Below, in pieces: positions 25,817-53,622 of a stretch of DNA of 53,622 nt. Within the stretch, counting starts at the first letter, position 1. The number at the start of each line of letters is the position of its first letter. The translations under genes and the position numbers were made by a program. The notes below the pieces were generated by a model. It worked only from the letters and a program-made list of their open reading frames with translations, made no database searches and was not told where the DNA came from. The stretch spans positions 1 through 53,622 of the forward strand of contig JAYPQH010000006.1 in assembly GCA_038131935.1 (NCBI GenBank), in the 5' to 3' direction. This DNA is from Alphaproteobacteria bacterium (GTDB taxonomy: Bacteria; Pseudomonadota; Alphaproteobacteria; UBA8317).

Positions 25817-26136
25817 TGGACAAATTTCCGCTTGATATCATGCAAAAAAATGTCCTTTTGGCGAGGCCTGAGGATAACAAAAATCCTGATCGAGCCGTTA
25901 AAGAATTAGAGGCTGTGGCGGAGCAATTTGAAGCGTTGCTGGTAGAAAAAATGTTCGCTGCAGGACGTGCCAGTAAGCTTGCTGAGGATCCTATGGGAAA
26001 TAAAGCCACAGATACGTTTTACAGTTTACTTGATCGAGAATATGCGATCAGTGCGGCGGACCAAGGATCCTTTGGTATTGCAGAAGCTCTGGTTGCGCAG
26101 TTTCGGCATCATGTTCAAGCTTCAGGAGATCGTTGA
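25813..26136 (+). CDS. flgJ: Single-domain FlgJ (rod-binding domain only, no muramidase)
   Basis: [30 protein letters not shown]; 107 aa. Confidence 0.88.
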
Positions 26137-29100
26137 TGGCCGGTATCCTGGATATCGCCAAAAGTGCGGTTAATGCCCATCGAGAGGCATTGAACCAAAC
26201 AGGTCAGAATATTGCCAATGCGAGCACGGAAGGGTACCGCCGTCGCGAAGCCGTTTTGGCGGAGGTTTCAGGGTCTCAAAGTGAACTCAATGCCAAAACC
26301 CAACAGCAGGGATTGGGCGTTCGCGTGAGCGAGATCCGTCGAGGTTTTGATCAATCATTACAAAACCGCGCCATGAATGCCACAGCAGGATTTGCCTCTA
26401 CGGAAACCATGTTGGAACAATTGCGTGTTCTTGAAAATACGCTTCTGCCTGCGGATGGCGATTTGACCGTTGCCATGGGGGCATTTTTTTCTGCGATGAC
26501 AGATGTTGCTGCATCCCCAGATGATTTATCTGCCCGTAATTTGTTGCTGAGCCAAGCCACAAGCCTTACCCAAGCCTTTGCGATCAATACGGAATCCGTA
26601 GCGGTTTTGGCTGATGATACCTATGATATGACAGTGGCCGCGACTGATCGGGTAAACGCATTGACGTCAGCTGTGGCGAAGGTGAACGAACAGCTGCGCT
26701 CAGGTTCGTACAGCACACCTTCACTCGCTTTGATGGATGAGCGTGACCGCTTGCTTGGTCTGTTGGCGGAAGAGGTTGGTATTTCGGTAGATTTTGGAAG
26801 CCGTCAGGAAGCAAATGTACGGTTGGGTATTAATGGTTCTGGTCCTCTTTTGGTATCTGGCGTCGAATCTCAAAATCTATTTATGACCCGTCGCGAAGAT
26901 CAGTTGGATGTTGTTACAGGTGCTGGACGCAACGTAACCTCAAGTGCGGATAGTGGTCTTTTGCGTGGTGCCATCGATAGTTATGCTGTAACAGGCCAAG
27001 CCCTCACAAGGTTGGATCAATTGGCACGTGATTTGGTGGCGCAAACCAATAAGATTCATGCCCAAGGGGTGGATTTAAATGGCCGACCTGGCGGGGCCAT
27101 GTTCGCATCAGCAGCATTTGTTGCCAATATGCCGCCACAAGCCGATGACCGTCTGTCCGTAGATTTTACACCGGAGCCTGGTGGTGTTGATAGCATCAGT
27201 TCCTTGGTTGCACAGTTTGATACAGGGACGTCCCAATGGCTGGTGCGTGATCAATCTGGACAGCTGCTAGGTCAGGGGCATGGGGTCATCGAAACCAACG
27301 CCGGCGTGGTTCGGATTGATGGGAAGGCGCAAGAAGGTGATGTCATCGAGTTTTCTCGAATGAAGGGTGATGCGCAGCGGTTAGAATTTTTGTTGGTTGA
27401 TCCAGAATCTATCGCGGCGGCTTCTTCCGTTTTGGGCACTGCGCGTGCCTCAAACCTGGGAGGAGCCGTGATTTCGGTGGCCATGGCCGAACAAGGGTTG
27501 TCAGGTCTTCCCTTGCTGTCTGACCGTTTACCCAATTCACTTAGTGGGGTGACGGCTTCGACCTTCCGTAACCCTGGGTTTGTGGGCATCATCCCACAAG
27601 GTGCTGGCTCTGTTGAATTGGCAAGTTTTGCAACACAGCCTAATGTGCTGATGACAGCAACCAACATGAGAGATCTAGAAACCTTTTCCTTCAATTACGA
27701 AGGTTTAAACTACGAATTTGATCTCAATAAATTCCCTGACCCTGATGCTCAAGATGGGGTAGGACAGTTCGATGTGGTTCGGGATATTCCAGCCTTCAAC
27801 ACGCTGGTAGCAAACAATGGTGGCACGACGGATGGATTGAACATCTTGCAAGTTTATGAGGGTAAGGACATCCCAGACTTGCTCAATCAAGGCGTTCTTC
27901 AAGGAAGGGATCAGGCTGGCAATTGGGTTAGTCTCGCTGATTTGGGTATGCATGCCGCAGGTGATGGGGTAAGTTTGTCAATTGTGGCAGCAAAGGGAGA
28001 ATTTTCTCAGCCTAGCATGAGCGCAACCAATCCCTCGGTTAATGATGTGCAGGCCGTGGAACGTGCGGCTGTAGATGCCAGCCAGATACAAGTTTTTACC
28101 CGCGAGGGGCGGCATATTGCAGGTTCATCATTGTCACCAACAGAAATTCAACAATTTCTGACAACAGATAATGGCTTTTTCTCAGAAGCAGAGTATCGTG
28201 CTGACTATTTAAACGCAGCCCAAGGTGTTGGTTACCGCGGGTTAGATATTAACCGTTATGTTGATGCTGGTACGTTTCGGGCCAATTTTTCAATTGTTTC
28301 ATCTGCAGATGGGATTTCTTCGGGTAATGGCGTTATTACTTCTGGGGTGAACCCATCGCCCAGTACGGTGGCACAAAATTTGACCATTGATGTCCCCCAA
28401 CTTGGGTTAACCTCTGAGGTTTCTGTGCTTGGCGGCCTCTCTGCAAAGGATGCAGCTGTTGCAATCAACCAAGAAATGGCCGCCCATGGTATTCATGCGT
28501 CCGCACAGACAAAGGTGGCCATATCACTCACTGATCCAGCATCTACGGGCCCTGTTTCTTTTGAACTCTCTACCCCCGGTGGTACATCTGTTTCCATAGA
28601 AGCGGTGGTTACAGGCGCTTCAGGTTTGGATGAGTTGGCCAAGCGTATTAATGAATATTCCATTGCAACGGGTGTGAGTGCCCATCTTACCGAAGGAAGC
28701 CAAACCTTGATCCTGGAAGATGCATCAGGACGTGATGTCATGTTGTCTGGTTTGGAAGGGCTGGGTTTGCATGCAAAATCTTTGGGCGCTGATTTTGAAG
28801 TCTTGGCTGAAAAAGATCTTTCATCAAACCAAAATCATCGCTTCCATGGTGTTATATCCATAACATCAACGTCAGCAATCAATGTCTCGTCTGATCTTGG
28901 CGGTCATGTGGATGCTTCTGCAGATCCCCTTGATAGCCCCTTGGTGCAACTAGAGCGTGCATCCTCAGGGGACCGTTTGCGTGCAGAATTTATCTTTGAT
29001 CCTGAGACAGATCTTGGAACCACGGGATCAGTAGGTGTGCGTGCCCAGGCGCCCTCGGGAAGTTATAACATTGTTTTGGATAGAGATTGGTTTGCACCTG

Positions 29101-30455
29101 TGTCGCGCACAAGTGCGGGTGTTAACAATGCTGACGATATCGCTGAGCAGATGGTACAATCTTTGCGATCACAAGCCCCAGCCATACGCCTGCAAGGGCA
29201 AGCGGTAAATTCTATGCCGTCAGAAGGCACAATCATGACCTTCACCCAAGGGGGGGAAAGCTACAGTTTACGCATGGGGCCATTGGGTGAACCTGCTGAG
29301 ATTATTGGCGTTGATGCGGGAAGATTTGTTGTCGATATGCCTTCTGATCGGAATGCGCAGACATGGAGCATTTCTACGAAAGATGGCTCCCTTTCAGGTG
29401 AACCCATCATTCCCGTATCCGGTGATATTGCAGCATTTGGGTTTGATAGCGGTACATCCCAATCACTCATTGGACGGGCTTTTACTATAGATAATGGGAC
29501 AAGCGAAACATTTGACGTGGAATTGGATGGTGAGGCCATCACCATCACGGTATCACGAGATGACAGTACCAATGGTGTGGTGGTTACATCGGATAACCCA
29601 AAGGTAACAGCTGAGGTTATAAACGCAGGAACAGCACAGCAACGCATTCGCCTGCAGGCTGATAAAGATGAAGGCCCGCTGCGTATTGTAAATGATGCTG
29701 TGGGTGCTGCTGCGATGGGGATAAAAACCACACGTGAAGAGGTCTTTGTTCGTCCTGGAGGGCTGGAGTTCCAACATCTAGACGGGAACACAGTGCAATC
29801 GCGTGTGACTTCTGAGCATCATTTGGTCAGTGAACGGTTGTCATTGCATGGTTTGCCTGATGAGGAATTGATTGTGCTGGTCACTGGTACGGGCAACAAC
29901 AAAATTGGAGCCTCATTTGGGCCACCTCCAGCCTTGGCACCCGAAAACGCACCATCATCACTGGTGTTGGAGGCAGTCGCTGGTGCTGCTGGACGTTATG
30001 AGTTGATCGATGAGGCTACGGGACAAAGCTTGGCAACGCGGACATTGGCGGCTGATAGACCTGCACAGATGCATGGTCTCGAAATTTCCATAGGGGGACA
30101 AGCGCAGACAGGTGATCTGTTCGATATCTCCTTAAATCAGCGTGCCGACCTTGATGGGCGGAATTTGGAAGCGATGGCGCAATTGGCGGTCAGTGTCGAG
30201 GGGCGGCGTGGATTGCCCGATGGGTTTCGGGATATCATTTCATCGGTGGGAGGCTCCTTGGAGGCTACTACCTTCGCAAATACCTCCGCCCAAGCGCGCA
30301 AAGATGCGGCAGATCAGGCAGTTGATGCTGTGTCAGGGGTTAATCTAGACGAAGAAGCAGCGAATCTGGTCCAGCAACAACAGGCGTTTCAAGCCGCGGC
30401 GCGTGTTTTACAAATGGCCCGTGATCTGTTTGAGACGCTGTTACAAATACGTTGA
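26133..30455 (+). CDS. flgK: Very large hook-associated protein FlgK (HAP1), 1,440 aa
   Basis: TGQNIANASTEGYRR, GLGVRVSEIRR, C-terminal VSGVNLDEEAANLVQQQQAFQAAA. Confidence 0.95.
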   Translation: MMAGILDIAKSAVNAHREALNQTGQNIANASTEGYRRREAVLAEVSGSQSELNAKTQQQGLGVRVSEIRRGFDQSLQNRAMNATAGFASTETMLEQLRVLENTLLPADGDLTVAMGAFFSAMTDVAASPDDLSARNLLLSQATSLTQAFAINTESVAVLADDTYDMTVAATDRVNALTSAVAKVNEQLRSGSYSTPSLALMDERDRLLGLLAEEVGISVDFGSRQEANVRLGINGSGPLLVSGVESQNLFMTRREDQLDVVTGAGRNVTSSADSGLLRGAIDSYAVTGQALTRLDQLARDLVAQTNKIHAQGVDLNGRPGGAMFASAAFVANMPPQADDRLSVDFTPEPGGVDSISSLVAQFDTGTSQWLVRDQSGQLLGQGHGVIETNAGVVRIDGKAQEGDVIEFSRMKGDAQRLEFLLVDPESIAAASSVLGTARASNLGGAVISVAMAEQGLSGLPLLSDRLPNSLSGVTASTFRNPGFVGIIPQGAGSVELASFATQPNVLMTATNMRDLETFSFNYEGLNYEFDLNKFPDPDAQDGVGQFDVVRDIPAFNTLVANNGGTTDGLNILQVYEGKDIPDLLNQGVLQGRDQAGNWVSLADLGMHAAGDGVSLSIVAAKGEFSQPSMSATNPSVNDVQAVERAAVDASQIQVFTREGRHIAGSSLSPTEIQQFLTTDNGFFSEAEYRADYLNAAQGVGYRGLDINRYVDAGTFRANFSIVSSADGISSGNGVITSGVNPSPSTVAQNLTIDVPQLGLTSEVSVLGGLSAKDAAVAINQEMAAHGIHASAQTKVAISLTDPASTGPVSFELSTPGGTSVSIEAVVTGASGLDELAKRINEYSIATGVSAHLTEGSQTLILEDASGRDVMLSGLEGLGLHAKSLGADFEVLAEKDLSSNQNHRFHGVISITSTSAINVSSDLGGHVDASADPLDSPLVQLERASSGDRLRAEFIFDPETDLGTTGSVGVRAQAPSGSYNIVLDRDWFAPVSRTSAGVNNADDIAEQMVQSLRSQAPAIRLQGQAVNSMPSEGTIMTFTQGGESYSLRMGPLGEPAEIIGVDAGRFVVDMPSDRNAQTWSISTKDGSLSGEPIIPVSGDIAAFGFDSGTSQSLIGRAFTIDNGTSETFDVELDGEAITITVSRDDSTNGVVVTSDNPKVTAEVINAGTAQQRIRLQADKDEGPLRIVNDAVGAAAMGIKTTREEVFVRPGGLEFQHLDGNTVQSRVTSEHHLVSERLSLHGLPDEELIVLVTGTGNNKIGASFGPPPALAPENAPSSLVLEAVAGAAGRYELIDEATGQSLATRTLAADRPAQMHGLEISIGGQAQTGDLFDISLNQRADLDGRNLEAMAQLAVSVEGRRGLPDGFRDIISSVGGSLEATTFANTSAQARKDAADQAVDAVSGVNLDEEAANLVQQQQAFQAAARVLQMARDLFETLLQIR

Positions 30456-30469
30456 GGAGTCTGTAAATT

Positions 30470-31732
30470 ATGAGTATGTCCACCAAATTATTTACCGAGC
30501 AGGCCCTAAACCGTTTTGATAGCATCGCCAAAGAAGTGCAAAAACGACAAGCACAAGTGGCGACAGGACGGCGTATCAACGAAGCTGCAGACGCGCCCAT
30601 GGATGCGGTAAAGGTTTCTGTCGGCGAGCAGCGGCTGCGTGAAGTAACGCAATATCAAGCCAATATTGAACTTGCGAACCAAAGGCTGAGTTTGACAGAT
30701 GTGGCACTTGAATCGGGTAGCAATTTGATGGTTCGGCTCAAGGAACTTGCGATTTCGGCAGCCTCTGATACCGTGAGCGCCTCTGACCGAAAAGCCATTG
30801 CTATTGAAGTTGAGCAAATCAAAGAAGCCATGCTGGGTATCGCCAATGCGCAGGATGCGCGGGGACAGGCATTGTTTGGTGGCTTATCTGCCAAAGACAG
30901 TGCATTTGTTGTCAATGATCAAGGCATTGTTGAGTATGATGGAGACACAGGCGCACGAACGATTGCTATTTCTGGAACACAGCGTGTGAGCCAGGGACTG
31001 CATGGTGCAGAAGTGTTCCAGCAAATTGAAACTTCTCAAGGTACGATCTCTGTGTTTGATGCTATCGATAGTTTTTTGCAATCGATGCAAGCCCGAGATG
31101 ACTTCGCTGTAAAATATACCAATGAAGCAGGGAGCATGTCGGTTGGGTTTAAAGGACAAGCGGAGCCACAGCTATGGAAAATGACCATCACGGGCCCACG
31201 TGGCACGGCAGATATTGCTGTGGAAATGGTCAACGGCCATGTGGGCGTAGCAGTTGATGCAATAAATGACGTATTGGGGCTAACCGGTGTTCGGGCAACA
31301 GCGTCAGATGATCAACAATATCTTCAGTTGACCTCTGATGGAGCAATTACGCTATCGCAAGTGGATATAGGTGGTGTGAGCACGGCTGGTGATCCGCCTG
31401 CTTATTATATGGAAATTACGTCCAACGAAGGTGTACAAAAACTAGCTTCAGCCAATCAAACCATCGGTGCGCAATTAGGGTTGATAGACCAAGCAACAGA
31501 ATCATTAGGGTTCTCTCGCGCCAAAGTTGGTGCACAAATCAATCAATTGGATGAGATGAACGGTATTCTTGAGCGAAGAGAATTGGTGTTGACAGAAGAT
31601 GTCAGCAAATTGCGCGACGCAGATCTGGAAAAAATAATTACCGAGTTACAGTCATTGTTGGTGAACCAAGATGCAGCGCGTCAGGTCTATAGTACGGTTT
31701 CACAAAGATCATTATTTGATTTTCTGTCATAA
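30470..31732 (+). CDS. flgL: Hook-associated protein FlgL (HAP3)
   Basis: QVATGRRINEAADAP, ANAQDARGQALFGG, RAKVGA, SLFDFL. Confidence 0.94.
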   Translation: MSMSTKLFTEQALNRFDSIAKEVQKRQAQVATGRRINEAADAPMDAVKVSVGEQRLREVTQYQANIELANQRLSLTDVALESGSNLMVRLKELAISAASDTVSASDRKAIAIEVEQIKEAMLGIANAQDARGQALFGGLSAKDSAFVVNDQGIVEYDGDTGARTIAISGTQRVSQGLHGAEVFQQIETSQGTISVFDAIDSFLQSMQARDDFAVKYTNEAGSMSVGFKGQAEPQLWKMTITGPRGTADIAVEMVNGHVGVAVDAINDVLGLTGVRATASDDQQYLQLTSDGAITLSQVDIGGVSTAGDPPAYYMEITSNEGVQKLASANQTIGAQLGLIDQATESLGFSRAKVGAQINQLDEMNGILERRELVLTEDVSKLRDADLEKIITELQSLLVNQDAARQVYSTVSQRSLFDFLS

Positions 31733-33506: not shown

Positions 33507-33935
33507 TTACTGCAGCGGAATATTCCAGGAGATATCTAGGAGGGGAATGGTTTGTGCAGACGTGATGGCAAGATCGCCCTCCACGGACACATCAAGTTCT
33601 TCAGAAAGGCCTAGAAAAATTGTGGCCGGACGTGGAGGGCTGTAACGCAGATGTTCATAAAGCATATGAAAATCGCTCTGGTTGATGGCCAAATCGCCAT
33701 GCATGACAGGCCTTGTGGCTTCAATATGTAGCTGTCCAATCGGTTCAATTCGGTTGCCTGTCGTGGCCTTGAGTTCCCTGGTTGGGGAAATTTTTAAATA
33801 GCAGGTGCCCCGTGCAATGCTGATCAAGCTTGCAGATGTAGCCAACGTAGCGACCCGTGGGGTCCCTGTGACCTGCAGCTCAGCTGTCTGTACCGACATG
33901 GAAATCACACGGGTTTTGTTCCATTCGCGCATCAA
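33507..33935 (-). CDS. Hypothetical protein coupled to fliA
   Basis: ORF overlaps the fliA stop; no family recognised. Confidence 0.6.
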   Translation of the reverse strand: MMREWNKTRVISMSVQTAELQVTGTPRVATLATSASLISIARGTCYLKISPTRELKATTGNRIEPIGQLHIEATRPVMHGDLAINQSDFHMLYEHLRYSPPRPATIFLGLSEELDVSVEGDLAITSAQTIPLLDISWNIPLQ

Positions 33936-34648
33936 CTGATGGCCTCAAAAGCCAGCCCCAAATCACCTTGCAAACGTTTGAAGGCGTTCGATTTGATTTG
34001 AGATACCCGCCCAGGTGTTACATCCAAAATGGCCGCGATATCATAGATATTTAATTCTTCGACATAGTAAAGTTGTAACACCAAAGCTTCCCGTTCTGGT
34101 AATGTCGCTAAGGCATCGCGCAACATGTCCCGGGCACGTGCGCGGTCAATGGTGGTTTCAGCACTCTCATGATCACTGGCGAATAGAAGAGAATATTCAT
34201 CATAAACTTCATCTATAGATTTATGAAAATTCGCTGCAAAAACACCTTGCCAGTTGGCAAAATCGATTTCATTTAAATTCAGTTCTCGCGCAATTTCCTC
34301 TTGGGTGGCCTCACGTTGTAACTTGTTGCGGAGGCGGTCTGCGGCCGCACGTGTTTCTTGCTGCATTTTGATGGAGCGGCGACAGAGGTTGGAATTGCTG
34401 CGTAAATAATCCAACATTGCGCCGCGGACCCTTAAAACGGCATAGCTGCCAAAGCTTACGCCTTCTTGGGGGGTGTAACGCTGCGCGGCTTCAACCAAAC
34501 CTGTGAGGCCGACTTGCATCAAATCTTCGATTTCGACAACGGCATTCACCCTCCCGTGCAAATGGTGAGCGACCCGCCGAACCATGGCTTCATGTTGTTG
34601 GATCACCAGGTTAATCGGGGGCGTTTGCTCGGGGTAGGATTTGGTCAT
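33932..34648 (-). CDS. fliA: Flagellar sigma factor sigma28
   Basis: EDLMQVGLTGLVEAA, YAVLRVRGAMLDYLR, LYYVEELN, RVSQI. Confidence 0.95.
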   Translation of the reverse strand: MTKSYPEQTPPINLVIQQHEAMVRRVAHHLHGRVNAVVEIEDLMQVGLTGLVEAAQRYTPQEGVSFGSYAVLRVRGAMLDYLRSNSNLCRRSIKMQQETRAAADRLRNKLQREATQEEIARELNLNEIDFANWQGVFAANFHKSIDEVYDEYSLLFASDHESAETTIDRARARDMLRDALATLPEREALVLQLYYVEELNIYDIAAILDVTPGRVSQIKSNAFKRLQGDLGLAFEAIS

Positions 34649-43508: not shown

Positions 43509-44127
43509 GGAACTTTTCTGCGAATTTTTGTTCCTCAAAAATGGCTTTGGCATTTGCTTGAACCTCAAGCAGGCGAGGAACTTCAAAGGAGCTTGCCAGT
43601 TCATCGCGGGTTTTTTTGGCATCCTTGATGTTAAGGGCTGTCGCCAACATCCACCAGGTTAGTGCTTGGTCCTCGTCTGCTGGGTTGAGGATGTCGCTAT
43701 AATAATGGGCCATTTGCGTGATGTAAGAGATGTCACCAGCCGCTACTTTGTTTTCAAGTTGTTTCAAAACATTGGCATAGATACCCTCAAGGCGATCCTC
43801 AGGAACAATATCTGAGAGATCTTCGGCAAGCTCATCGGCACGTTTCACATTGCCAAGTTTTGCCAATAAGGCGAGCTCCAATGCTTTAACATAATCTTGC
43901 GGTACACCGATGCCGTCATGAAGAATAAACGCCGCGTTATACTGAGCATCATGATCCCCTTGTTCTGCCAGAGCCAGAAATATCGAGATGGCGTCATAAT
44001 AAGCGCCTTCACGAAAATGTTTCATGGCTTGAGAAAAGGGTGTTGCAACTTGATGTTCCGCTGCCTGTCCCATGGACATGTTTAATGAGAGCAACATAGC
44101 GGTCAGTGCCAATATTCTATTGTTCAT
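43486..44127 (-). CDS. Exported Sel1-like repeat protein
   Basis: Signal peptide; LAEQGDHDAQYNAAFILHDGIGVPQDY Sel1 repeat. Confidence 0.85.
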   Translation of the reverse strand: MNNRILALTAMLLSLNMSMGQAAEHQVATPFSQAMKHFREGAYYDAISIFLALAEQGDHDAQYNAAFILHDGIGVPQDYVKALELALLAKLGNVKRADELAEDLSDIVPEDRLEGIYANVLKQLENKVAAGDISYITQMAHYYSDILNPADEDQALTWWMLATALNIKDAKKTRDELASSFEVPRLLEVQANAKAIFEEQKFAEKFLKPHPKD

Positions 44128-44129
44128 GA

Positions 44130-44510
44130 TTACCTTCCTGCCAGCATAATCAGCTGAAGATAAAACAACCTCAGTTTAAATCGAGAATTTTGCTGCTGCT
44201 CATAGACCACAACCTTGGGTCGTTCCCCATGGGATACAGAAAATTCAATATGAATGGTATCGGGTAACAATACACCATTGGTTTTGAGTGCATCACGAGG
44301 GTTTTTCATGAATTCTGCATGAAAGTCCGGATCAATCCAAATACGCGCCAAAACGCTACCCATGATATCTGGCAGCTGCTTTCGGACCTGATGGCGGTCC
44401 AACAAGACCACATCTTCTGATTTCTCACGTCCTGGGCTCATATGACCTGAATGCATACCAGGAGAGCGCACCACGGCAAGAGATGTAGCAGCTGATGTTT
44501 CAGATGGCAT
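44130..44510 (-). CDS. Protein with a nitrile-hydratase-alpha/NHLP leader-like segment
   Basis: VLARIWIDPDFHAEFMKNPRDALKTNGVLLP resembles the NHLP/NHase-alpha N-terminal motif. Confidence 0.6.
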   Translation of the reverse strand: MPSETSAATSLAVVRSPGMHSGHMSPGREKSEDVVLLDRHQVRKQLPDIMGSVLARIWIDPDFHAEFMKNPRDALKTNGVLLPDTIHIEFSVSHGERPKVVVYEQQQNSRFKLRLFYLQLIMLAGR

Positions 44511-44833
44511 GAGGAACTCCGAGGTCTTTTAACTGCTAACGGATGAATTAAGACAACTTTTAGGTTAACTGTTAATTCGTCAGTAGATCATGGCCATTTA
44601 TTTAAGTAAGCGGCATTCTAAGATCCACAAAAAGTTAAGTGTATTTGGAGAACTCGTATGTTAGAACTTTGATCCATGCCAAATGGTTTTAGTCATTTGT
44701 TCAAAATTTTATTGAGATAATGAATTGAGGGATTTGCTATCAACAGTGTCACGACAGTAAGGTATTTGTGCCCCAAATATCCTTTTTAAAACTCTCGTCT
44801 GCACGAAAAAAACAGAAAAGTTCCCTGAAAACC

Positions 44834-44859
44834 TAAACATTTGTGAAATTCGTCGTTTT
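44834..44859 (+). promoter_or_regulatory. sigma28-like promoter of the flagellin expression site
   Basis: TAAA-N14-GTCGTTTT, followed by AAGGAGA RBS before ATG 44942. Confidence 0.65.
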
Positions 44860-44941
44860 CTTCATCAGGACGCCCAAGGTCTCAGACCAAAACGGGCTGA
44901 ATTGTCCGACTAAATTCTGGGCTAGATAAAGGAGAAAACCG

Positions 44942-46132
44942 ATGGCTCTTACAGTTGCTACTAATACTGGCGCTCTTACGGCCCAAGCTGCCGCCTCAAG
45001 CGTAAACAGGGATATGGAAACATCAATGCAGCGACTTTCTACTGGAAAGCGCATAAATAGTGCTGCTGATGATGCCGGCATCGGGATTGCATCGCCTAAC
45101 ATCTGAAATTAGGGAACAAATCAATCCATTAGAAATGCGCTAGACGCACAGGCGATGCTATCAACCGCAGAAAGTGCGCATAATGAAGTGGAAAATATTC
45201 TGCAGCGCATGCGTGAAATCGCAGTTCAAGCATCCAACGACACAAATGGATCAGCTGATCGGACCTCACTCCAGGCTGAAATGACCCAATTAACAAACGA
45301 AATCAACAGAATAGCAGCATCAACAACTTGGGCTGGCGTATATTTGCTTAACGGTGATGGCGCAGATGGTTCTGTTTCTACTACTGCTGATGCAACAAAT
45401 ACGTTCACGTATCAAATATCATCAAATGAAACAGGTACAAATGATACCCTCTCCGCTGTAAATGAAAGCGATTGATGCCACGAGTTTGGGTGTAGGTGGT
45501 TCTTCGTCAGCTGCGACCGTTGCATTCGGTACACTTACTGCTGCTGATGCTTCGGCTTCGGCTTCCAGCAACAGCAACTGGGACAATTACGCTTGTTGCA
45601 GAGACTGATGCGTCCGCCGCTGCGAACACAGAAAAATTTACATTCACTGTTGATGGTGGAGTACGTTGACATACGACTCTTCACAGACGGTGTCGCAAAA
45701 GGTTATGACACAACAAGTTTAACTGCTTTGGCTCAATCATTCATTCAATCTCTTGAAGATAACCTAGATACAAACACCTTACTCCTTTTTCTGTAGCCAG
45801 CAGGAGCTGTATCAATAACAAAAAGAATTCGGTTAGCGTGTTTCTTCAAATTCAAACGCTCAAGCTTCAATGACATCTATCGATGCCGCCATAACTGAGT
45901 TGAAACACGCAGCGTGGTGCCATTGGTGCTTACATCAACAGACTAGAAAGTACGGTAGCGAACTTAACTGGAAGTTGTCGGTCAGCTTCAGGGTGGTTTA
46001 GGCCGGATACAAGACGCAGATTTTGCTTCAGAGACAACAAATTTGTCGAAAACACAAATTTTGCAGCAAGCTTCGACTGCAATGTTGGCCCAGGCTAACG
46101 CTTCAAAGCAGAGTGTTTTGTCTCTATTGTAA
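44942..46132 (+). CDS. fliC: Flagellin A (about 395 aa, currently at the expression site; several apparent sequencing frameshifts)
   Basis: [15 protein letters not shown]...[34 protein letters not shown]-terminus [32 protein letters not shown]. Confidence 0.92.
44966..44988 (+). repeat. Left inverted repeat / putative recombination site inside flagellin codons 9-16
   Basis: ACTGGCGCTCTTACGGCCCAAGC, exact reverse complement of 51126-51148. Confidence 0.9.
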
Positions 46133-46153
46133 GGCTAATTCAGAATATTTCTT

Positions 46154-46179
46154 GAGCCCACTAATTGGTGGTTCTTTTT
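46154..46179 (+). terminator. Probable terminator of flagellin A
   Basis: GAGCCCAC-TAATTG-GTGGTTC imperfect stem followed by a T run. Confidence 0.5.
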
Positions 46180-46296
46180 ATAATTAAATTAAAAAATAAT
46201 AAAAAAATAAATAAATTTAATTAAAAAATAATTAATAATTAAAAGTTTTGAGCGTTTTGTCGAAACCTTATGTGTGTGTTTTCTGTGGAACTAAGT

Positions 46297-47462
46297 ATGC
46301 TTACAAATAGAAAAATAGAACGCCAAAGATTTGCCCTTCAGGTAAAAATTTTTACGTTCGTGATCAAAAAACAAAAGGTTTAAGTTTGATTATATCAAGC
46401 AAATCAAAAAGATTTGTCCTTAGATTTCGGCGCAATGATAAGTTTTATAGCCGCACTTTAGGCTACTGGCCGTATGTCAATTTACAGACAGCTAGATCAA
46501 TGGCGGTTCATATAAAGTCTGCTAACGAATCGCTTCATTATGCAATTCCATCGCCGAAGAACTTCAAATCAATAAGCATGGATGATTTTATGTCTATCCA
46601 TCACTTGCCTTACCTAAGGGTTCAAAAGAAAAGTTGGTTTTTGGATGAAGGTTATTTCAAAAACCATATTCGACCATTGATAGGCACCTCACCGATCTCC
46701 TACATTAATAACGCTCATGTTGAAACATTAATTATTGAACTTAAAAGCAAAAATCTTGCAAATAGCACAATCAACAGAATATTGATTTCGCTTGGAAAAA
46801 TTCTGAAGCACGCGGAAAATATTGGACATTGTCCAATTGGCAACAGGAATAAATTAAAAATTAAACTTCTACCAGAGCAAAATCATATAACCAGATACTT
46901 AAGCAATGAGGAGCATCAGCGTCTTTTTCAAGCACTGGCCCAAGAAAATAAGCCTATTTTTAAATACTTTATTTCATTTTTGCTTTTAACTGGTTGCCGA
47001 AAGATGGAAGCCTTACAAGCTAAATGGATTGACTTTGATTTTAATAACAACATCTGGGTTATACCAAAGACAAAAAGTGGAAAAATTCGGAGGGTCCCCA
47101 TTTCTGATGCTGTCAAAAAGTTATTGTTGTTGAATGTTTCATCTTATCAGAAAAACAACCTTATCGAGGATAAGAGCCCTTATGTTTTTGTTAATGTCAA
47201 AACAGGAAAGCCATATGTGAACTGCGATAAGACATGGAAGAAGATACGAAAGAAGGCTGATCTTAAAAATTTTAGATTACATGATTTAAGGCATTCATTT
47301 GCCTCTATTTTGGCAAACGAAGGCGTGTCAATATATGAAATTCAGCATCTTCTCGGGCATGCATCAATTACAACCACAAATCGTTACGCACATTTAGTTC
47401 CTGAAAGACTTAGGCAGAGTGCGTCCATCGCAGCTGAGGAATATTCTCTTGCTTCTGATTAA
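46297..47462 (+). CDS. Tyrosine recombinase/integrase with an N-terminal arm-type DNA-binding domain (one frameshift near 46320)
   Basis: Catalytic set intact: TGCR, KTKSG, HDLRH, LLGH, TTNRY. N-terminus MLTNRKIE...RDQKTKGLSL...TLGYWPYVNLQTAR. Confidence 0.93.
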
Positions 47463-48236
47463 ATAGCGGCAGTAATCATATCACATTTCGCGCAAGCAAC
47501 TTTAATTTTTATTATTTCACGCCGTGGAAATTATTTATTGATTAAATTTAGTTTTGTTTAAACAACTTAACGAGATACTTATGATGCTCGTAATCCCAAG
47601 GCAGAAGTAAGATGTTTCTTGCCGTAACATTTCCTTAAATATTTTACGTAGATATACCACCAAAATTTTTGTCTTTACTTCACACACGTTACTAACCTTC
47701 TTATACCCTTAAATCTTTATAGATAGTTTCTGTTTATAGCTTGAATAAAGACCGATACAAGCCTGGTAGCTTTGAGTTAATGATATAATGTCCGTTTGCA
47801 AGTTTGTTTGTACAGAATGTTTTTGTTCACGCTGGATTTATTGAGAGTTTTGAAACATTCACCAACAAGATTAACCTTATTACCTTAAATTGAAATTTAT
47901 TATTTCTACTAGAACAACATTCTGAAATTATGTTTGTTATAATTCTTTATTTTATGTCATCTTAATAAATATTCGAACAATATCAAATATTTTTTAAATG
48001 ATTATAATGGAGGCTTTCAACAGTATCAATTGTGATGAATTCTGAGCAGAACAAGCAATACTGTCCAATTGATAATAAAAATTTCCTTTTCATTGAAAGC
48101 CGTTCCACCGATCTTTTCACGTACAGCTCCGCGTGATGACAGAATTTTGTTAGTAACTTAGTTATTTTCCATTAGGCAGCCTTATCACTACATCATTGTC
48201 GGATGATGCCATTGAATAATTCGACCATAGAATTAG

Positions 48237-48600
48237 TTGCAAAATACAATTTTGCGTCTTAAATTTGGATGTATTTTTGTGATCAGTAAGAAAGTTCAAA
48301 TTTTGAATGAATATTTTACATATTACACAAGACTAAGGAGCGAAGGTTTAGTCTTACAGGACAGACGCTTGGAAATTTTGTTTGTATTATTTCAGCATAA
48401 GAGAAAATGGATGGACCGAGTTTCGATTTCAAAGATGAGTCAAATGAGTTACCAATCAGCACTATATGAATTAGAAAAAATGGTTGCTGAACAAATTATA
48501 ATTACAAAAAAAAACGAGTGACATAGTTATTTCCAATACGGAATTTTATGCATTGTCAGAGGAAACATTTAAAAAGTTGCAAAACTTGTTTGATGAGTAA
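48237..48600 (+). CDS. Putative winged-helix DNA-binding protein (frameshift at the A9 run 48506-48514)
   Basis: LEILFVL...RVSISKMSQMSYQSALYELEKMVAEQII; with one A fewer it continues TSDIVISNTEFYALSEETFKKLQNLFDE*. Confidence 0.5.
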
Positions 48601-48672
48601 ATGAGAGAAACTAGCCAAACCTTTAGCGTATGCATTAATATTGAGCATTTTCACCTTTGTATTTGTAGTCAT

Positions 48673-48702
48673 AAAAAAAGGCCCAAATATTTGGGCCTTT
48701 TT
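48673..48702. terminator. Bidirectional intrinsic terminator (end of flagellin B and the wHTH gene)
   Basis: AAAAAAAGGCCCAAATATTTGGGCCTTTTT: perfect palindrome with A/T tails. Confidence 0.9.
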
Positions 48703-48727
48703 CATATTCGGTCTTTATAGGGTAGTT

Positions 48728-51148
48728 TTACCCCTTGAAGTAAGGATAGAATGTTCTGCTTGGCAGCATTCGCTTGAGCTAACATCGCCATGGATGCTTG
48801 TTGAAGGATTTGTGCCTTGGCTAAATTGGTAGTTTCACTTGCAAAATCAGCATCAGAAATTCTGCCCTTGGACGCTTCTGTATTGATAGCCGGTAAGTAA
48901 GACTTGCAATAGTGTGATCAAGTCGGTTCATTACCGCACCAAGCTTTGCACGCTCAGATGAAACATCATTTAATGCACTGTCAATAATCGCAAGAGCATC
49001 AGATGCAAGAGAGCTAGAGCCCAAATTCACCTCACTAACGCCACTTGCAGATGATGCGTTACCATCATCTAGAAACTTCTTTGCAGTGCCGGTTGTATTG
49101 CAGAGCCTGAGCAACCTGCATTGAGCCAGCCGCATCGGATTTAAACGAAGTAATAGAAACTTCCGTCCTGCAGATTGAACAAAGGTTAATGAGCCATCAC
49201 CATTATCTGCGACACTGATAGAACTAGTCATTCCAGCAGCTGCCAAACCATATTCAATTGCGGCTTTAATTTCTGCAACACAAGCTGTTGTGCCAACTGC
49301 TGATACGCTAGTTGGATCAACCACGGCAGTCCGCTCACCATCGGAAATCCGGAAAGCGTAGGTATCGATTGCAGTAAAGCTTATATCTATATCCGTAGCT
49401 TGTGCTGTCCCAACCGCAGTCGCTGGCAACTGCAGCTGTGCCATATGATGTGTCGTCGAGTACTTCAGACAACCCTTGAGTCCCACCACTATCTGAGTCA
49501 GTTGACGCGACAATTTTGCCACCTGCCGTAGATGTGAATCCAGTAGCACTGAAACTTCCTCCAGCTTCTTCAATGATACGAATTTGACCATTCGCGTGAG
49601 AAACGGTGTACGTATTACCGAGGGCATTACCTATCGTTGTAGCGACAAGATCCCGACAGCTGAAGTTCCATCGCAGGAGAATGATATTGCCGTCGTAACC
49701 CCACCATTCACGATGTTAAAAGCGTAGTCATCGGCAGATAATAAATCTAGATACATATTGCTTCCGCCGGACTCAGGTGTTGCAGCCGTCGCATTTGTCC
49801 CATCCGTATTGGTCAAAGTAAGCGCCAAACTGCCATTTACGGCAGCTGGTGGACTAGCTGTATCAACTTCCGTTAGCACGAGAGCTGTTTTCGTACCAAC
49901 GGCTTGCGCTGTAGCCGTCAAAGTCCCAGTTGTGGCATCTGCAGTGAAATTATAATCAGACTGAACAGCATTTAGCGTGCAGATGCTAAATCACCGACTG
50001 TACCAGAATCATCAACCGCTACTGAGACAGTGTAACCACCAGCACCGGCACCACCTTCTACATCAAGCTGAATCCGATTTTGATGTCGTGTTGTCAGGAT
50101 CAAAGCCGTTTCAGCCAAATCTCTTGCCTGTACAGATGCAGTGCCAGCTGTTGCACCAGCTGCTGCTGTGTAGGCTGCGCGATTGGTTCCATCAACCTCA
50201 AAGGTTGTCCCTGTACTAGCAGGTGCAGTACCGATAACTGCAGATGCATCAGAGCCCGCGCCACCATTAATCGTTGGAAATACAATTGACCGTGGTATTC
50301 GCAGTGGCTGAATACCCTGAGCGACCCCAAGCAGAGCCTGCCGGCGCTGTCTTCTTAATGGTTACTTTACATTGCCAGACGACAGCTGCTTGAATATCGT
50401 TGTCGACATTTTTGCGTTCTCAGTGGCCCGCAGGGGCTGTCGCAACAGAAATTGCCGCTGCAGAGTTATTTTTGCACCTTTGCATTTGCTAGGGACAACT
50501 GGGCCGCCGCACCGTGGTTATAGCTGCAACGTCAAAAGAGAAAAGTGTCGTTACCATTGGACGCAAGTTGGACCTGCGTAACACCTGCTTCAGACACCCT
50601 TGAAGCTTCCGCTTGTTACTGCTGTAAGCGTCGATACTGCACCATTTGTTCCCAGCGACGTTCGATACCCAAAACCTGAAACAAAGATCAAATTCATCGT
50701 TTGACCTGCCGCGATGCACTCGATTTGCAAATCGAAAGGACACCTGAGTTCCATTCTGGTGGAAGAGTCTTTCCGTTGAATTGAGTCGTGCTGACAATTC
50801 TGTCAATTTTTGCTTTTAATTGAGTTGTTTCTTTTGCTGATTATACGGTCATCATCACTGTTCGTGTCAGAAACCGACTGAACCGCCAATTCACGCATTC
50901 TTTGCAACATACTCTCTATTTCAACCATCGCACCTTTCAGCAGTGCTAGCAAGAGCCTGTCTTATCGCCAGCATTTCGGATTGCTTGGTTCAAACTCCTG
51001 ACCTGAGCCTCTAGACGTGATGCAATAGCAACGCCTGCGGCATCATCGGCGCGGCTGAATTGCCGCTGCCCTGTGGACAAAACGATTCATGGCCGTTTCC
51101 ATTCTTTGTTTACACTGACGCCGCGGCTTGGGCCGTAAGAGCGCCAGT
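48728..51148 (-). CDS. fliC: Flagellin B body (about 810 aa): silent cassette lacking promoter, RBS and codons 1-8; many apparent sequencing frameshifts
   Basis: Minus strand [11 protein letters not shown]..., [63 protein letters not shown], ending [16 protein letters not shown]. Confidence 0.88.
51126..51148 (-). repeat. Right inverted repeat / putative recombination site
   Basis: GCTTGGGCCGTAAGAGCGCCAGT, reverse complement of 44966-44988. Confidence 0.9.
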
Positions 51149-51652
51149 CTTAAAACCTTTTGTTTTGCGCTTGTAAAATATTGAAAGAGAATAAATTTTT
51201 AAGACTTCTTAAGGTAGAGATTTTTGACAGGTCATCCGGTGCAGTAATTGTCAAGAAATATGACAAGCAGATTGTTTTTAAATATGTTTTGATTATGTTT
51301 TTCCCCACTTACAATGAGCAAAACGCATTGATATTTTTGACAAAAAACGCATGCATTTTCTTATAAATTCTTCAAAATAATCAGCCATAAGCCCTCCGTG
51401 AGGTAATTTTGGTGTTTAGGATTGATAGGGTGTTTGGTGGAACGCGTGCTTCTGCGCAAGGAGAATGTAATGTATAGGGTCCACATTACCTGGGTTCAAA
51501 TTGATAAATGGATCTCTTTTTTAAGAGCGCTCATCAGAATTCATGCCGTTGTATGGATCTTTATTCTTTGAGCGTCACTTGCTTTATGGCTCAAGGAAAA
51601 CTTTGACTTGAGAAAACAGCTAACATCTCGTTTGTGTTGAAGGGTGTGATCG

Positions 51653-52154
51653 TTACCGTCTAATCCTATCTCTTACAAACCTTACAGCCATCTCTTGATT
51701 AGGAAAAAAGCGACCATAGGAATTCCCTGTATGAAAACTTACGGTCCAATAGTTTTCTTTGTTCCAAAAATTGGCCTGTCCTGTCAATAGGGTCCATTAA
51801 ATGTTGTTGGGAAACACAAGACGATTGATGGTTGGGCTTCCCCTTGATCTTTGCGGACCAAACCCTCGAGTTCATCTTTGGTTGGTAGACGCCATGGATT
51901 GCTTTGTTGTTCTTCTGACATTTTTTTCTGCAATTTTTTGTGCTTGTTCGACAGATAGGTGTATAATGTCGCCCTCACAGCTTGCTTTCCCGTCTTGCTC
52001 TTGAAAGGTTTGACCAAAGCTACAGCGCTGCCATTCAAGTTGTTGATGATGTCGATGGCAAGGTCACCTTCTCGCAGAAGTGCGATGCTTCAGCGGCTGC
52101 ATTATGTCCTAATGTTGCTATTATTAGAAGAGCGCTAAGGGTTCTTTTGTTCAT
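51653..52154 (-). CDS. Exported DUF1566 (Lcl C-terminal-like) protein, frameshifted
   Basis: Signal peptide MNKRTLSALLIIATLG; WRLPTKDEL; YWTVSFHTG; terminal AVRFVRD. Confidence 0.7.
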
Positions 52155-52198
52155 GGCATTTACTTTAACGTTGTGAATTTGTGAACTTAATCTCTTTT

Positions 52199-52215
52199 CT
52201 GGCATCATGCTTGCA
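52199..52215 (+). promoter_or_regulatory. sigma54 promoter of motAB
   Basis: CTGGCATCATGCTTGCA. Confidence 0.8.
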
Positions 52216-52286
52216 TAATCCCTTCGGTACAAGAAACTGCAAATCACTGCCAAATAGGATGATATGCAAAAATGGAGATAAAGGTT

Positions 52287-53049
52287 ATGGATCTCGCCTC
52301 ATTAATTGGCCTTATTGGTGCCATCGGTATGATTGTAGGAGCTATGATCTCTGGTGGTGGTATTGGTCCTTTTATCGATGTCCCCTCTATTTTAATTGTG
52401 TTTGGGGAACTTTTTTGCAGCTATGTATGTGTTCCTTTGGGTGTTTTTCTTAGGAAGCTTTTGCGCCATGGCCAAGGCTTTTATGCCTTCTAACAAGCCC
52501 AAAGAGGCCTTGATTGAGCGTATGGTCGAGCTTATGGTATTGCACGAAAGATGGTATGATGGCGCTTGAAGGCCAAGAAGTCCCTGATAAATTTTGGTAA
52601 AGGCCTTCAATTGCTGGTTGATGGTGCTGATGAGTAAGCTTGTGAAGCAGCTTAATCAGGAAATCAAAGCCATGAAGGCGTCACGAAGCCAACCAGAATG
52701 CGATTAAGGGCCGGGGTGGATCTGGCACCTGCAATGGGTACGGATTGGTACGCCCATCGGCTTGGTTCTGATGTTAGGAAGACATGGCTGACCTGAAAGC
52801 TATTGGTCCCGCAAGATGGCGTAGTTGCTCTTTTGACAACGCTTTATGGGGGCGTTCATCGCAAACGTCTTGTTCGGTGCCCATGGTGGCGAAGCTTGAA
52901 TATTATACCTCTGATGAGGTTGTGTACCGTGAAAATGGTTGTTGAAGGGTTGCGCACATTGCCCGCGGTGAGTCGCCCGCAACATTCAAGACCAGATGGC
53001 AAGTAACTCCGGCGCCTCAGCGCGCAGTGCAAAATTTGACGCGGCATAA
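52287..53049 (+). CDS. motA: Flagellar stator A subunit (PomA/MotA), multiply frameshifted in this sequence
   Basis: MDLASLIGLIGAIGMIVGAM..GGIGPFIDVPSILIVFG, KGLQLLVDG, DLAPAMG, GLVLMLG, VALLTTLYG in shifting frames. Confidence 0.88.
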
Positions 53050-53064
53050 GGTTAGAGGATCGCC

Positions 53065-53622
53065 ATGGCTGCAAAAGAAGCTCCACCAGTCGAAGAAGAA
53101 GGCCAGCCGACGAAGAATGTCCCAAATGCCCACCTGTGGGCGCGCTGGCGCTGACGGCTACTTTCGCGGATATGGCCACCTCGTTGATGGCGTTCTTTGT
53201 TTTCGATTTTGTCATTTGCTGAATTTAACGTGCCAAAATCAAGCAGATTTTTAGGTCCGCCGATGAAGGATTTTGGTGTCTGTGAAAAATTATCCTGCTT
53301 GTTGAGCAGCTCTAAAGGGAACGACCTTACTGCAATTAAGCTTCACCATCTCCATCGCCGTCGGTGATTGATGAGGCAACTCTGTATTAACACGCAAGAC
53401 AATAAACTGGTTAAATTGAGCAGCTAACTGATAATGACTGAGCCAAGGATCAGATCAGCTTCAGGGTGCGAAATGAATGGAAGGCTTAGGTGGCAAGATA
53501 AAGATATGGGACAGAGTTCCAGAAAGCATTGCGGGCAGAGCGTTTGGCCGATGCTATTAATCAATTGGCAGCAAATTCAGACATAGAAGCACGCGTGATG
53601 GATGGCACTGTCGTTGTGGGTC
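53065..53622 (+). CDS. motB: Flagellar stator B subunit (PomB/MotB), frameshifted, runs off the window
   Basis: ECPKCPPVG...ATFADMAT.LMAFFV...FAEFNVPK; follows motA with a GAGG RBS. Confidence 0.85.

Follow-up and report, generated by a model that had tools for sequence, protein, structure and literature searches.

Does the locus near the right end of contig JAYPQH010000006.1 exchange one flagellin for another by DNA inversion? The contig belongs to an alphaproteobacterial genome (GCA_038131935.1; 67 contigs, 2.48 Mb, 90% complete), and the window analyzed here is the entire contig of 53,622 bp. Two flagellin genes, A (plus strand, 44942-46135) and B (minus strand, 51148-48732), are arranged tail to tail, carry inverted copies of a short repeat in their 5' coding regions, and enclose a gene for a tyrosine recombinase (Table 1). 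Promoter, ribosome-binding site (RBS), and start codon are found in front of A and are missing in front of B. Judged from its sequence, the locus has about an even chance (roughly 50%) of being an expression-site inversion switch that exchanges the two flagellins.

The repeat is exact over 23 nt and lies inside coding sequence on both sides, in opposite orientation and in the same codon phase. The wider repeat arms cover 37 nt (44962-44998 and 51116-51152) with 89% complementarity. The 23-nt core has just two copies in the 2.48-Mb genome, even with up to 5 substitutions allowed. The codons of A and B were compared after the reading frames had been corrected against intact relatives. All seven full codons inside the repeat are identical. 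Between residues 17 and 135, the same codon is used at 26 of 64 identical residues (41%), and the nucleotide identity is 190/339 (56%). Just past the repeat, 4 of the next 5 aligned codons differ at a synonymous position. The chance of such an identical run at a given place is about 0.41^7 = 0.002, based on the count of synonymous sites. Because 7/7 codons are identical inside the repeat compared to 26/64 outside, the repeat reflects more than protein conservation and its identity is non-random. A preliminary description of this DNA, drawn from the letters alone, had reported both the exact repeat and the synonymous divergence straight after it, and these data bear out both points.

Flagellin B begins abruptly at codon 9. 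Precisely at the outer border of the repeat core, B ceases to resemble A or any full-length relative. Upstream of codon 9, the frame of B consists of a TAA followed by 20 sense codons (EVLKIYSLSIFYKRKTKGFK) that include no ATG, GTG, or TTG. We did not detect a Shine-Dalgarno-like motif within 40 nt of B or a flagellar promoter motif upstream of it on the minus strand of the window. The 24 nt encoding MALTVATN, the first eight residues of A, have a single match in the window when up to 3 mismatches are tolerated (0 expected from 100 shuffles). That occurrence is in A, and B therefore lacks a copy of the first eight codons. The absence of a start for B had been noted before and is confirmed. The body of B is conserved even though it is start-less: 728 of 789 codons (~92%) are the same as in the 800-residue relative P0001, and there is no in-frame stop. 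The corresponding figure for A is 379 of 392 aligned codons identical to those of P0031, an intact 398-residue relative from another metagenome. N- and C-terminal domains (Flagellin_N and Flagellin_C) support the flagellin class for both proteins.

The expression signals of A are a Shine-Dalgarno sequence, AAGGA, at -13 and the ATG at 44942, both as previously described, together with a promoter-like motif. This motif, TAAAC-N12-CGTCGTT, has one other copy in the window (42306, plus strand) and none on the minus strand, and motifs of the same type lie upstream of flagellin genes in three related loci (L119, L126, and L159). The promoter had been called sigma-28-like. A flagellar-type motif is present, but the region upstream of A gave no match to the strict Escherichia coli-type sigma-28 consensus (TAAA-N14-16-GCCGATAA, with 1+2 mismatches at most). 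One terminator had been assigned to each flagellin, and both are found as terminator-like structures, a hairpin after A and a palindrome after B. Scans for sigma-70 promoters and for terminators were no richer than shuffles (20 versus 18.1 and 5 versus 6.6, respectively).

Table 1. Features of the flagellin locus and of the surrounding window (window coordinates)
Feature	Position	Strand	Basis or remark
Flagellar (sigma-28-type) promoter-like motif, TAAAC-N12-CGTCGTT	44834-44857	+	~85 nt upstream of the ATG of A
Fixed expression segment: Shine-Dalgarno AAGGA, ATG 44942, codons 1-8 (MALTVATN)	44929-44965	+	
Flagellin A, 398-residue type	44942-46135	+	Flagellin_N; frameshift-aware alignment to P0031
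Left inverted repeat, exact 23 nt	44966-44988	+	Codons 9-16 of flagellin A
Right inverted repeat, exact 23 nt	51126-51148	-	Codons 9-16 of flagellin B
Flagellin B, 800-residue type, begins at codon 9	48732-51148	-	Alignment to P0001
Tyrosine recombinase, arm-binding (P4-like) integrase type; 398 residues at full length	46297-47462	+	Phage_integrase
Terminator-like hairpin and T run after A	46158-46180 (hairpin 46158-46171)	+	
Perfect 16-nt palindrome GGCCCAAATATTTGGGCC flanked by A/T runs, terminator-like, after B	48675-48702		
Low-GC (guanine + cytosine) islet: recombinase and ~1.2 kb without recognizable gene	46175-48670		32-36% GC versus 43-52% around
AT-rich flank beyond the right repeat	51149-51700		No homology to the region upstream of A
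Lcl_C/DUF1566-like gene fragments, broken	51700-52253	-	Lcl_C E = 2.7e-4, under cut-off
motA/pomA-like gene and start of motB-like gene (stator), broken by frameshifts and stops	52287-53309	+	
FliA-like sigma factor	33932-34648		Family scan

These features suggest how a switch would operate. The locus would be a two-cassette flagellin expression site in which one promoter, one RBS, one start codon, and the first eight codons stay fixed (44834-44965). At present this fixed segment would serve the 398-residue flagellin A to which it is fused, and the 800-residue flagellin B would be a silent cassette that starts at codon 9, 6.1 kb away and in the opposite orientation. Recombination between the in-phase 23-bp inverted repeats would flip a 6.2-kb segment; B would then be fused in frame to the fixed segment, and A would lose its start. 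The locus has the traits of gene-altering inversions, namely in-phase repeats in coding sequence, a partner without promoter or start that ends at the repeat, and a recombinase at the locus. According to Milman et al. 2023 (PMC9881135), the DNA of a silent copy upstream of the repeats is useless in every variant and is eventually deleted. The loss of the 5' part of B is the pattern predicted by that model. Long-term use of the repeat as an inversion site also predicts that the unlikely block of identity should coincide with the end of the homology of B, as it does.

Proteins that resemble the product of a flip exist. P0001 and P0151 are full-length B-type flagellins of 800 residues with a MALTVATN start, and 18 of 18 residues are the same as in the predicted fusion of the fixed segment to B, up to the first frameshift. 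Both are encoded on contigs of 2,502 nt or less. The earlier proposal that a flip fuses the promoter and eight codons to B is in keeping with the anatomy and with these proteins, but no inverted DNA was found in the relatives scanned, none of which is close. Full-length A-type sequences number four besides that of the window, and two of them are on contigs of 2,389 and 4,173 nt, sizes that match contigs carrying the 126-residue gene upstream of A in the window. Two further A-type proteins, P0156 and P0157, have 370 residues, start at Met29, and are encoded on contigs of 18,078 and 29,609 nt. These sizes match 0/15 of the upstream-gene members listed, 0/8 members of the integrase cluster, and 0/2 members of the B cluster. 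The 370-residue forms are as expected if A abuts a different flank there, which would be its off state; this is a hint in which contig size serves as a fingerprint and not as proof.

Observations on the relatives, the repeat, the recombinase, and the frameshifts weigh against a switch. The MALTVATN N terminus is found in 49 of 161 flagellin relatives, and because it is this common P0001 alone is no proof of a flipped state. A live alternative for the start-less A forms is that they are genes called at the edge of a contig. Among the 161 relatives, 15 are called from an internal Met13 ('MAQAAASS'; P0285, P0036, the 386-residue P0057, and others), and further ones from Met69 or Met91, and P0287 likewise starts at an internal Met; the start-less A forms were rejected as proof of an off state on these grounds. 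Met13 starts are far commoner than starts at later internal Met residues, so that in this flagellin family either contig breaks or gene truncations fall preferentially in the first 12 codons.

Related loci did not supply the other orientation. P0001 was used to retrieve 80 loci on metagenome contigs and 80 on genome contigs, and the contigs of P0001 and P0031 were not among them. The best DNA identity between these 160 loci and the flagellins of the window was ~73%, or at most ~84% over stretches of less than 110 nt. An inverted, 5'-truncated partner was found in 0/160 of these other flagellin loci. Opposite-strand flagellin pairs occur in L084, L107, L119, L144, and L159, each gene with a full start, and what look like truncations in L119 and L126 are not cassettes bounded by repeats. 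The search for the opposite orientation in relatives that the preliminary description had called for thus came back empty at the DNA level in collection scans, which gave no close relative. The exact 23-mer was not found in metagenome or viral contig collections. A genome of the same genus (G001, 84% complete) has no match to the DNA of A or to P0001. No match to P0031 was obtained in 400 genomes of the class at E <= 1e-40, a threshold too strict for distant flagellins. Twenty sequencing runs contain 12-28% of the sampled words of 44000-53622, none contains half or more, and they give no evidence of habitat, strain, or orientation.

The recombinase had been described as an intact tyrosine recombinase between the flagellins. 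Its tyrosine type and Phage_integrase domain are upheld; the gene as assembled carries one frameshift, and the protein is an arm-binding integrase encoded in a low-GC islet. The open reading frame (ORF) as assembled encodes 358 residues from an internal TTG at 46386 to 47462 (Phage_integrase E = 1.4e-34). Comparison with P0279 and P0241 places the real start at the ATG at 46297 and shows that one C is missing from a C run near 46337-46341. The closest relative, P0241, has 398 residues and is 92% identical, and the next cluster is 49% identical. PF00589 is present in both the window recombinase and P0241. Arm-DNA-bind_3 (PF13356) scores 18.4 bits in the truncated ORF and 30 bits in P0241 (cut-off 27). 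Since P0241 carries this domain above the Pfam cut-off, the domain content places the window recombinase among arm-binding integrases of the P4-like type. No NCBIfam equivalog matches it, and the models of tyrosine-type invertases score weakly, at ~23 bits compared to cut-offs of ~221. Known tyrosine invertases usually lack an arm domain. Inversion by this recombinase, the likeliest enzyme, is a doubtful assignment, and inversion by a recombinase encoded elsewhere or by RecA acting on the short repeat seems unlikely.

The rival explanation that survives best draws on these properties of the recombinase. It holds that B is a dead 5'-truncated paralogue, that the integrase belongs to an unrelated islet, that the 23-bp identity stems from a single past recombination or conversion, and that there is no switching today. 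We regard it as possible but not probable. The integrase is of the arm-binding type, and its gene sits in low-GC DNA at 46-49 kb. Its closest relatives are 92% identical, compared to ~97% for A. The 90% identity cluster has seven members other than the window recombinase, of which four are intact and three are split pieces from other assemblies; P0279 and P0278 are pieces on a contig of the same size, and P0284 is separate. The split in P0278/P0279 and in P0284 is a frameshift after about residue 265. Recombinases at a similar distance (32-40% identity) are ordinary island integrases, and homologues of 32-38% identity occur in 5 of 400 other genomes of the class. The arm and catalytic domains and the odd base composition of a P4-type island integrase are all present. 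Taken together, these properties suit a passenger mobile element no less than they suit a dedicated invertase.

Two loci combine a 36-40% identical integrase with a flagellin. They were dropped as support for a switch because equally distant integrases occur in 5/400 genomes of the class, so the linkage is not specific, and the rival explanation counts them as homologues in ordinary islands beside flagellins. L010:257-7891 contains an intact 891-residue flagellin followed by a 5-kb island that ends in the homologous integrase. L148:588-3087 contains the integrase beside a tRNA-like sequence (recognized by eye), an XRE-like gene, and a flagellin without ~37 N-terminal residues.

The repeat itself lends this rival some weight. 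Codon 13 (44978-44980) encodes Thr in flagellin A of the window, as it does in B-type proteins, and Ala in each of the four other full-length A-type sequences. In a sister lineage, the short and the long flagellins alike carry Met13. The perfect 23-bp repeat may therefore be recent and strain-specific, because its identity depends on Thr13. Thr13 may also be a sign of concerted evolution, or a footprint left at the repeat by recombination. An intact third flagellin is present on contig C27 of the genome. In the survey of PMC9881135, the predicted gene-altering inversions are depleted of 'Flagellin' (odds ratio 0.27); by this measure, inverted repeats in a pair of flagellin paralogues do not usually mark a programmed inversion. 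Three properties of the locus are not accounted for by a dead paralogue and an unrelated islet. The point of truncation coincides with the start of a 23-nt perfect block (~0.002). A start-less gene of 2.4 kb has acquired no nonsense substitution and remains ~92% identical to a full-length relative. The islet lacks convincing att-like direct repeats at its borders, and there is no tRNA target in the window.

The reading as a switch also requires a view on the frameshifts, which the preliminary description overlooked. The flagellin genes are not open as assembled: the longest ORFs are 54 and 106 residues in A and 268 residues in B. A differs from P0031 by 12 frameshift events and one missing codon, and B differs from P0001 by 31 frameshift events and 9 codon-sized gaps. 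A ends in ...SLL*G* (46128-46135), with a TAA in place of a Gln codon two residues before the natural stop of P0031. From 44,942 to the contig end, the recombinase ORF is almost the sole open frame. We infer that A, B, and motAB most likely owe their frameshifts to consensus errors near a contig end with poor support and not to decay, and the flagellin and mot genes are consequently probably intact in the cell.

Several lines of evidence lead to this view. Indels number 12 against ~12 residue differences in A and 31 against 61 in B, in comparison with relatives from other samples. There are zero nonsense substitutions in B, and insertions are at least as frequent as deletions in the alignments of both genes. 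Natural decay is expected to give far more substitutions than indels, with a deletion bias. The remaining flagellar machinery is intact: positions 1-44,500 of the window are a dense flagellar gene region with intact frames, where family scans identify FlhA, FlgI, FlgK, FlgA, FlgT, and the FliA-like sigma factor as intact, and where a 420-residue Flagellin_N ORF and an FlhG-like ATPase ORF are open. With L091 proteins as queries, no motA or motB other than the broken pair turned up in the genome. Stretches without an ORF of at least 200 residues also occur at other contig ends, up to ~21-23 kb long.

The alternative that A, B, and motAB are true pseudogenes decaying in a redundant motility locus, with biological frameshifts, is improbable. 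The number of breaks in both flagellins and the broken motA/motB genes agree with it, as does the intact flagellin on C27. The damage is not uniform. There is 1 frameshift in the ~1.2 kb of the recombinase gene, which lies between the flagellins and is nearly intact, compared to 1 per 80-100 nt in the flagellins. Just 19 of 43 frameshift events are near a homopolymer compared to a background of ~30%, which is a weak enrichment, and the recombinase gene is homopolymer-rich yet nearly clean. A simple error model does not account for this pattern, which also sits poorly with reading the breaks as consensus errors. Decay does not explain why indels equal the residue differences in A and reach half of them in B, why nonsense changes are absent from B, or why insertions are not rarer than deletions. 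It also does not explain why the sole stator genes found in a 90% complete genome would be broken next to intact flagellar genes, or why ORF-free stretches concentrate at contig ends across the genome.

The ORF-poor stretches (no ORF of at least 200 residues) are C5:71149-91826 (20.7 kb), C18:214823-237527 (22.7 kb), C22:1-4845, C15:687-8908, and C37:30841-39280, most of them at the end of a contig. The C5 stretch contains fragments that by eye resemble sugar-nucleotide/polysaccharide genes and an IS3-like transposase. In strain-variable regions, the tails of this assembly seem to be either error-rich or decayed.

The last alternative is that the right junction, where unrelated DNA meets codon 9 of B, is a chimera that arose during assembly or library preparation in a contig tail of low coverage. 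It is very improbable. The last 8.7 kb of the contig are visibly poor, the contig stops 2.5 kb past the junction, and P0286 illustrates that such genes are mis-joined in another assembly. A chimera through the shared 23-mer, which has two copies only, would however join the flank of A to B or the flank of B to A and not a third sequence to B, and a random break would be unlikely to coincide with the border of the identity block. P0286 (693 residues, 47,107-nt contig) is a hybrid with an internal deletion: its first 43 residues resemble a short-type flagellin, and the sequence then continues from about residue 146 of a long-type flagellin. It is either a recombinant or a mis-join.

A switch of the proposed kind would have its closest parallels in the expression-site inversions of Mycoplasma vsa/Vpma, Moraxella pilin, Campylobacter fetus sapA, and hsdS. 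In Mycoplasma pulmonis vsa, the tyrosine recombinase HvsR acts on a single expression site and on silent genes that lack a 5' end and carry short 5' repeats. As proposed here, vsa has a single promoter, start, and 5' end, and inversion brings another body to the expression site. The vsa system differs in that it encodes surface lipoproteins in many cassettes and uses a simple recombinase, whereas the window holds two flagellins and an arm-binding integrase as the candidate enzyme. PMC11868660 mentions the Vpma/XerC shufflon of Mycoplasma agalactiae, which is related to vsa, and cites the pilin inversion (Piv) of Moraxella bovis and Moraxella lacunata. The Moraxella system resembles the one proposed here in that a constant N-terminal part and promoter are fixed and two filament-subunit bodies are swapped. 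It differs in exchanging a type IV pilin on a segment of ~2 kb, compared to a flagellin on 6.2 kb with a tyrosine recombinase as the candidate. Piv is a DEDD transposase-like recombinase. The S-layer inversion of Campylobacter fetus sapA is mainly RecA-dependent and uses hundreds of bp of homology. It shares with the window one promoter, oppositely oriented homologues, and a conserved 5' coding region, but the repeat in the window is 23-37 bp.

Other coding-sequence inversions are less similar. The R64 shufflon (Rci) and phage Gin and Cin exchange parts of surface or adhesion proteins, as proposed for the window; the Gin tail-fibre shufflon is given as an example in PMC13418256. They swap C-terminal ends, with serine recombinases in the case of Gin and Cin, whereas the swap here would be at codon 9 near the N terminus. 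The hsdS and other gene-altering inversions of PMC9881135 have coding repeats, a truncated partner, and a recombinase nearby, as does the window, and differ in the depletion of 'Flagellin' in that survey. Flagellar phase variation by site-specific inversion is described for Clostridioides difficile and Salmonella (PMC5386303 and others). The DNA flipped by Salmonella Hin and Clostridioides difficile RecV is a promoter or a leader, whereas the window repeats are inside coding sequence. Hin is a serine recombinase. The locus is not of the Hin type, with a tyrosine-type recombinase and repeats in coding sequence. Proteus mirabilis carries flaA and a silent flaB as tandem genes that undergo deletion and fusion by homologous recombination, which is not a reversible inversion; as in the proposed switch, a silent flagellin copy feeds a new expressed flagellin.

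The literature search, based on excerpts of the sources, returned no case in which inversion exchanges the coding body of a flagellin behind a fixed start; the supplements of PMC9881135 may list candidates. A marine alphaproteobacterium may alternate between filament subunits of 398 and 800 residues by a 6.2-kb flip, which would be the first flagellin coding-sequence inversion described, with an arm-binding integrase possibly recruited as the invertase; this fuller proposition is plausible but tentative. Known flagellar phase variation consists of promoter or leader flips and of slipped-strand changes. If the switch is real, expression-site switching extends to the flagellar filament, which phages, grazers, and host receptors all have as a main target. 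The uncultured marine lineage concerned would exchange subunits differing two-fold in size, and an enzyme of the integrase type would serve it as an invertase. If it is not real, the locus is a useful warning that a switch can be mimicked by truncated paralogues and by contig tails rich in errors.

The family scans of positions 1-44,500 also identify a rod/hook-type protein. The 420-residue ORF with the Flagellin_N match (30470-31732) is, in our reading, FlgL. The third flagellin (C27:18908-20698) is intact, has ~596 residues beginning with MVGIVTDTG, and is divergent from A and B. FlgK in the window is unusually long, with an intact frame of 1440 residues at 26133-30455.

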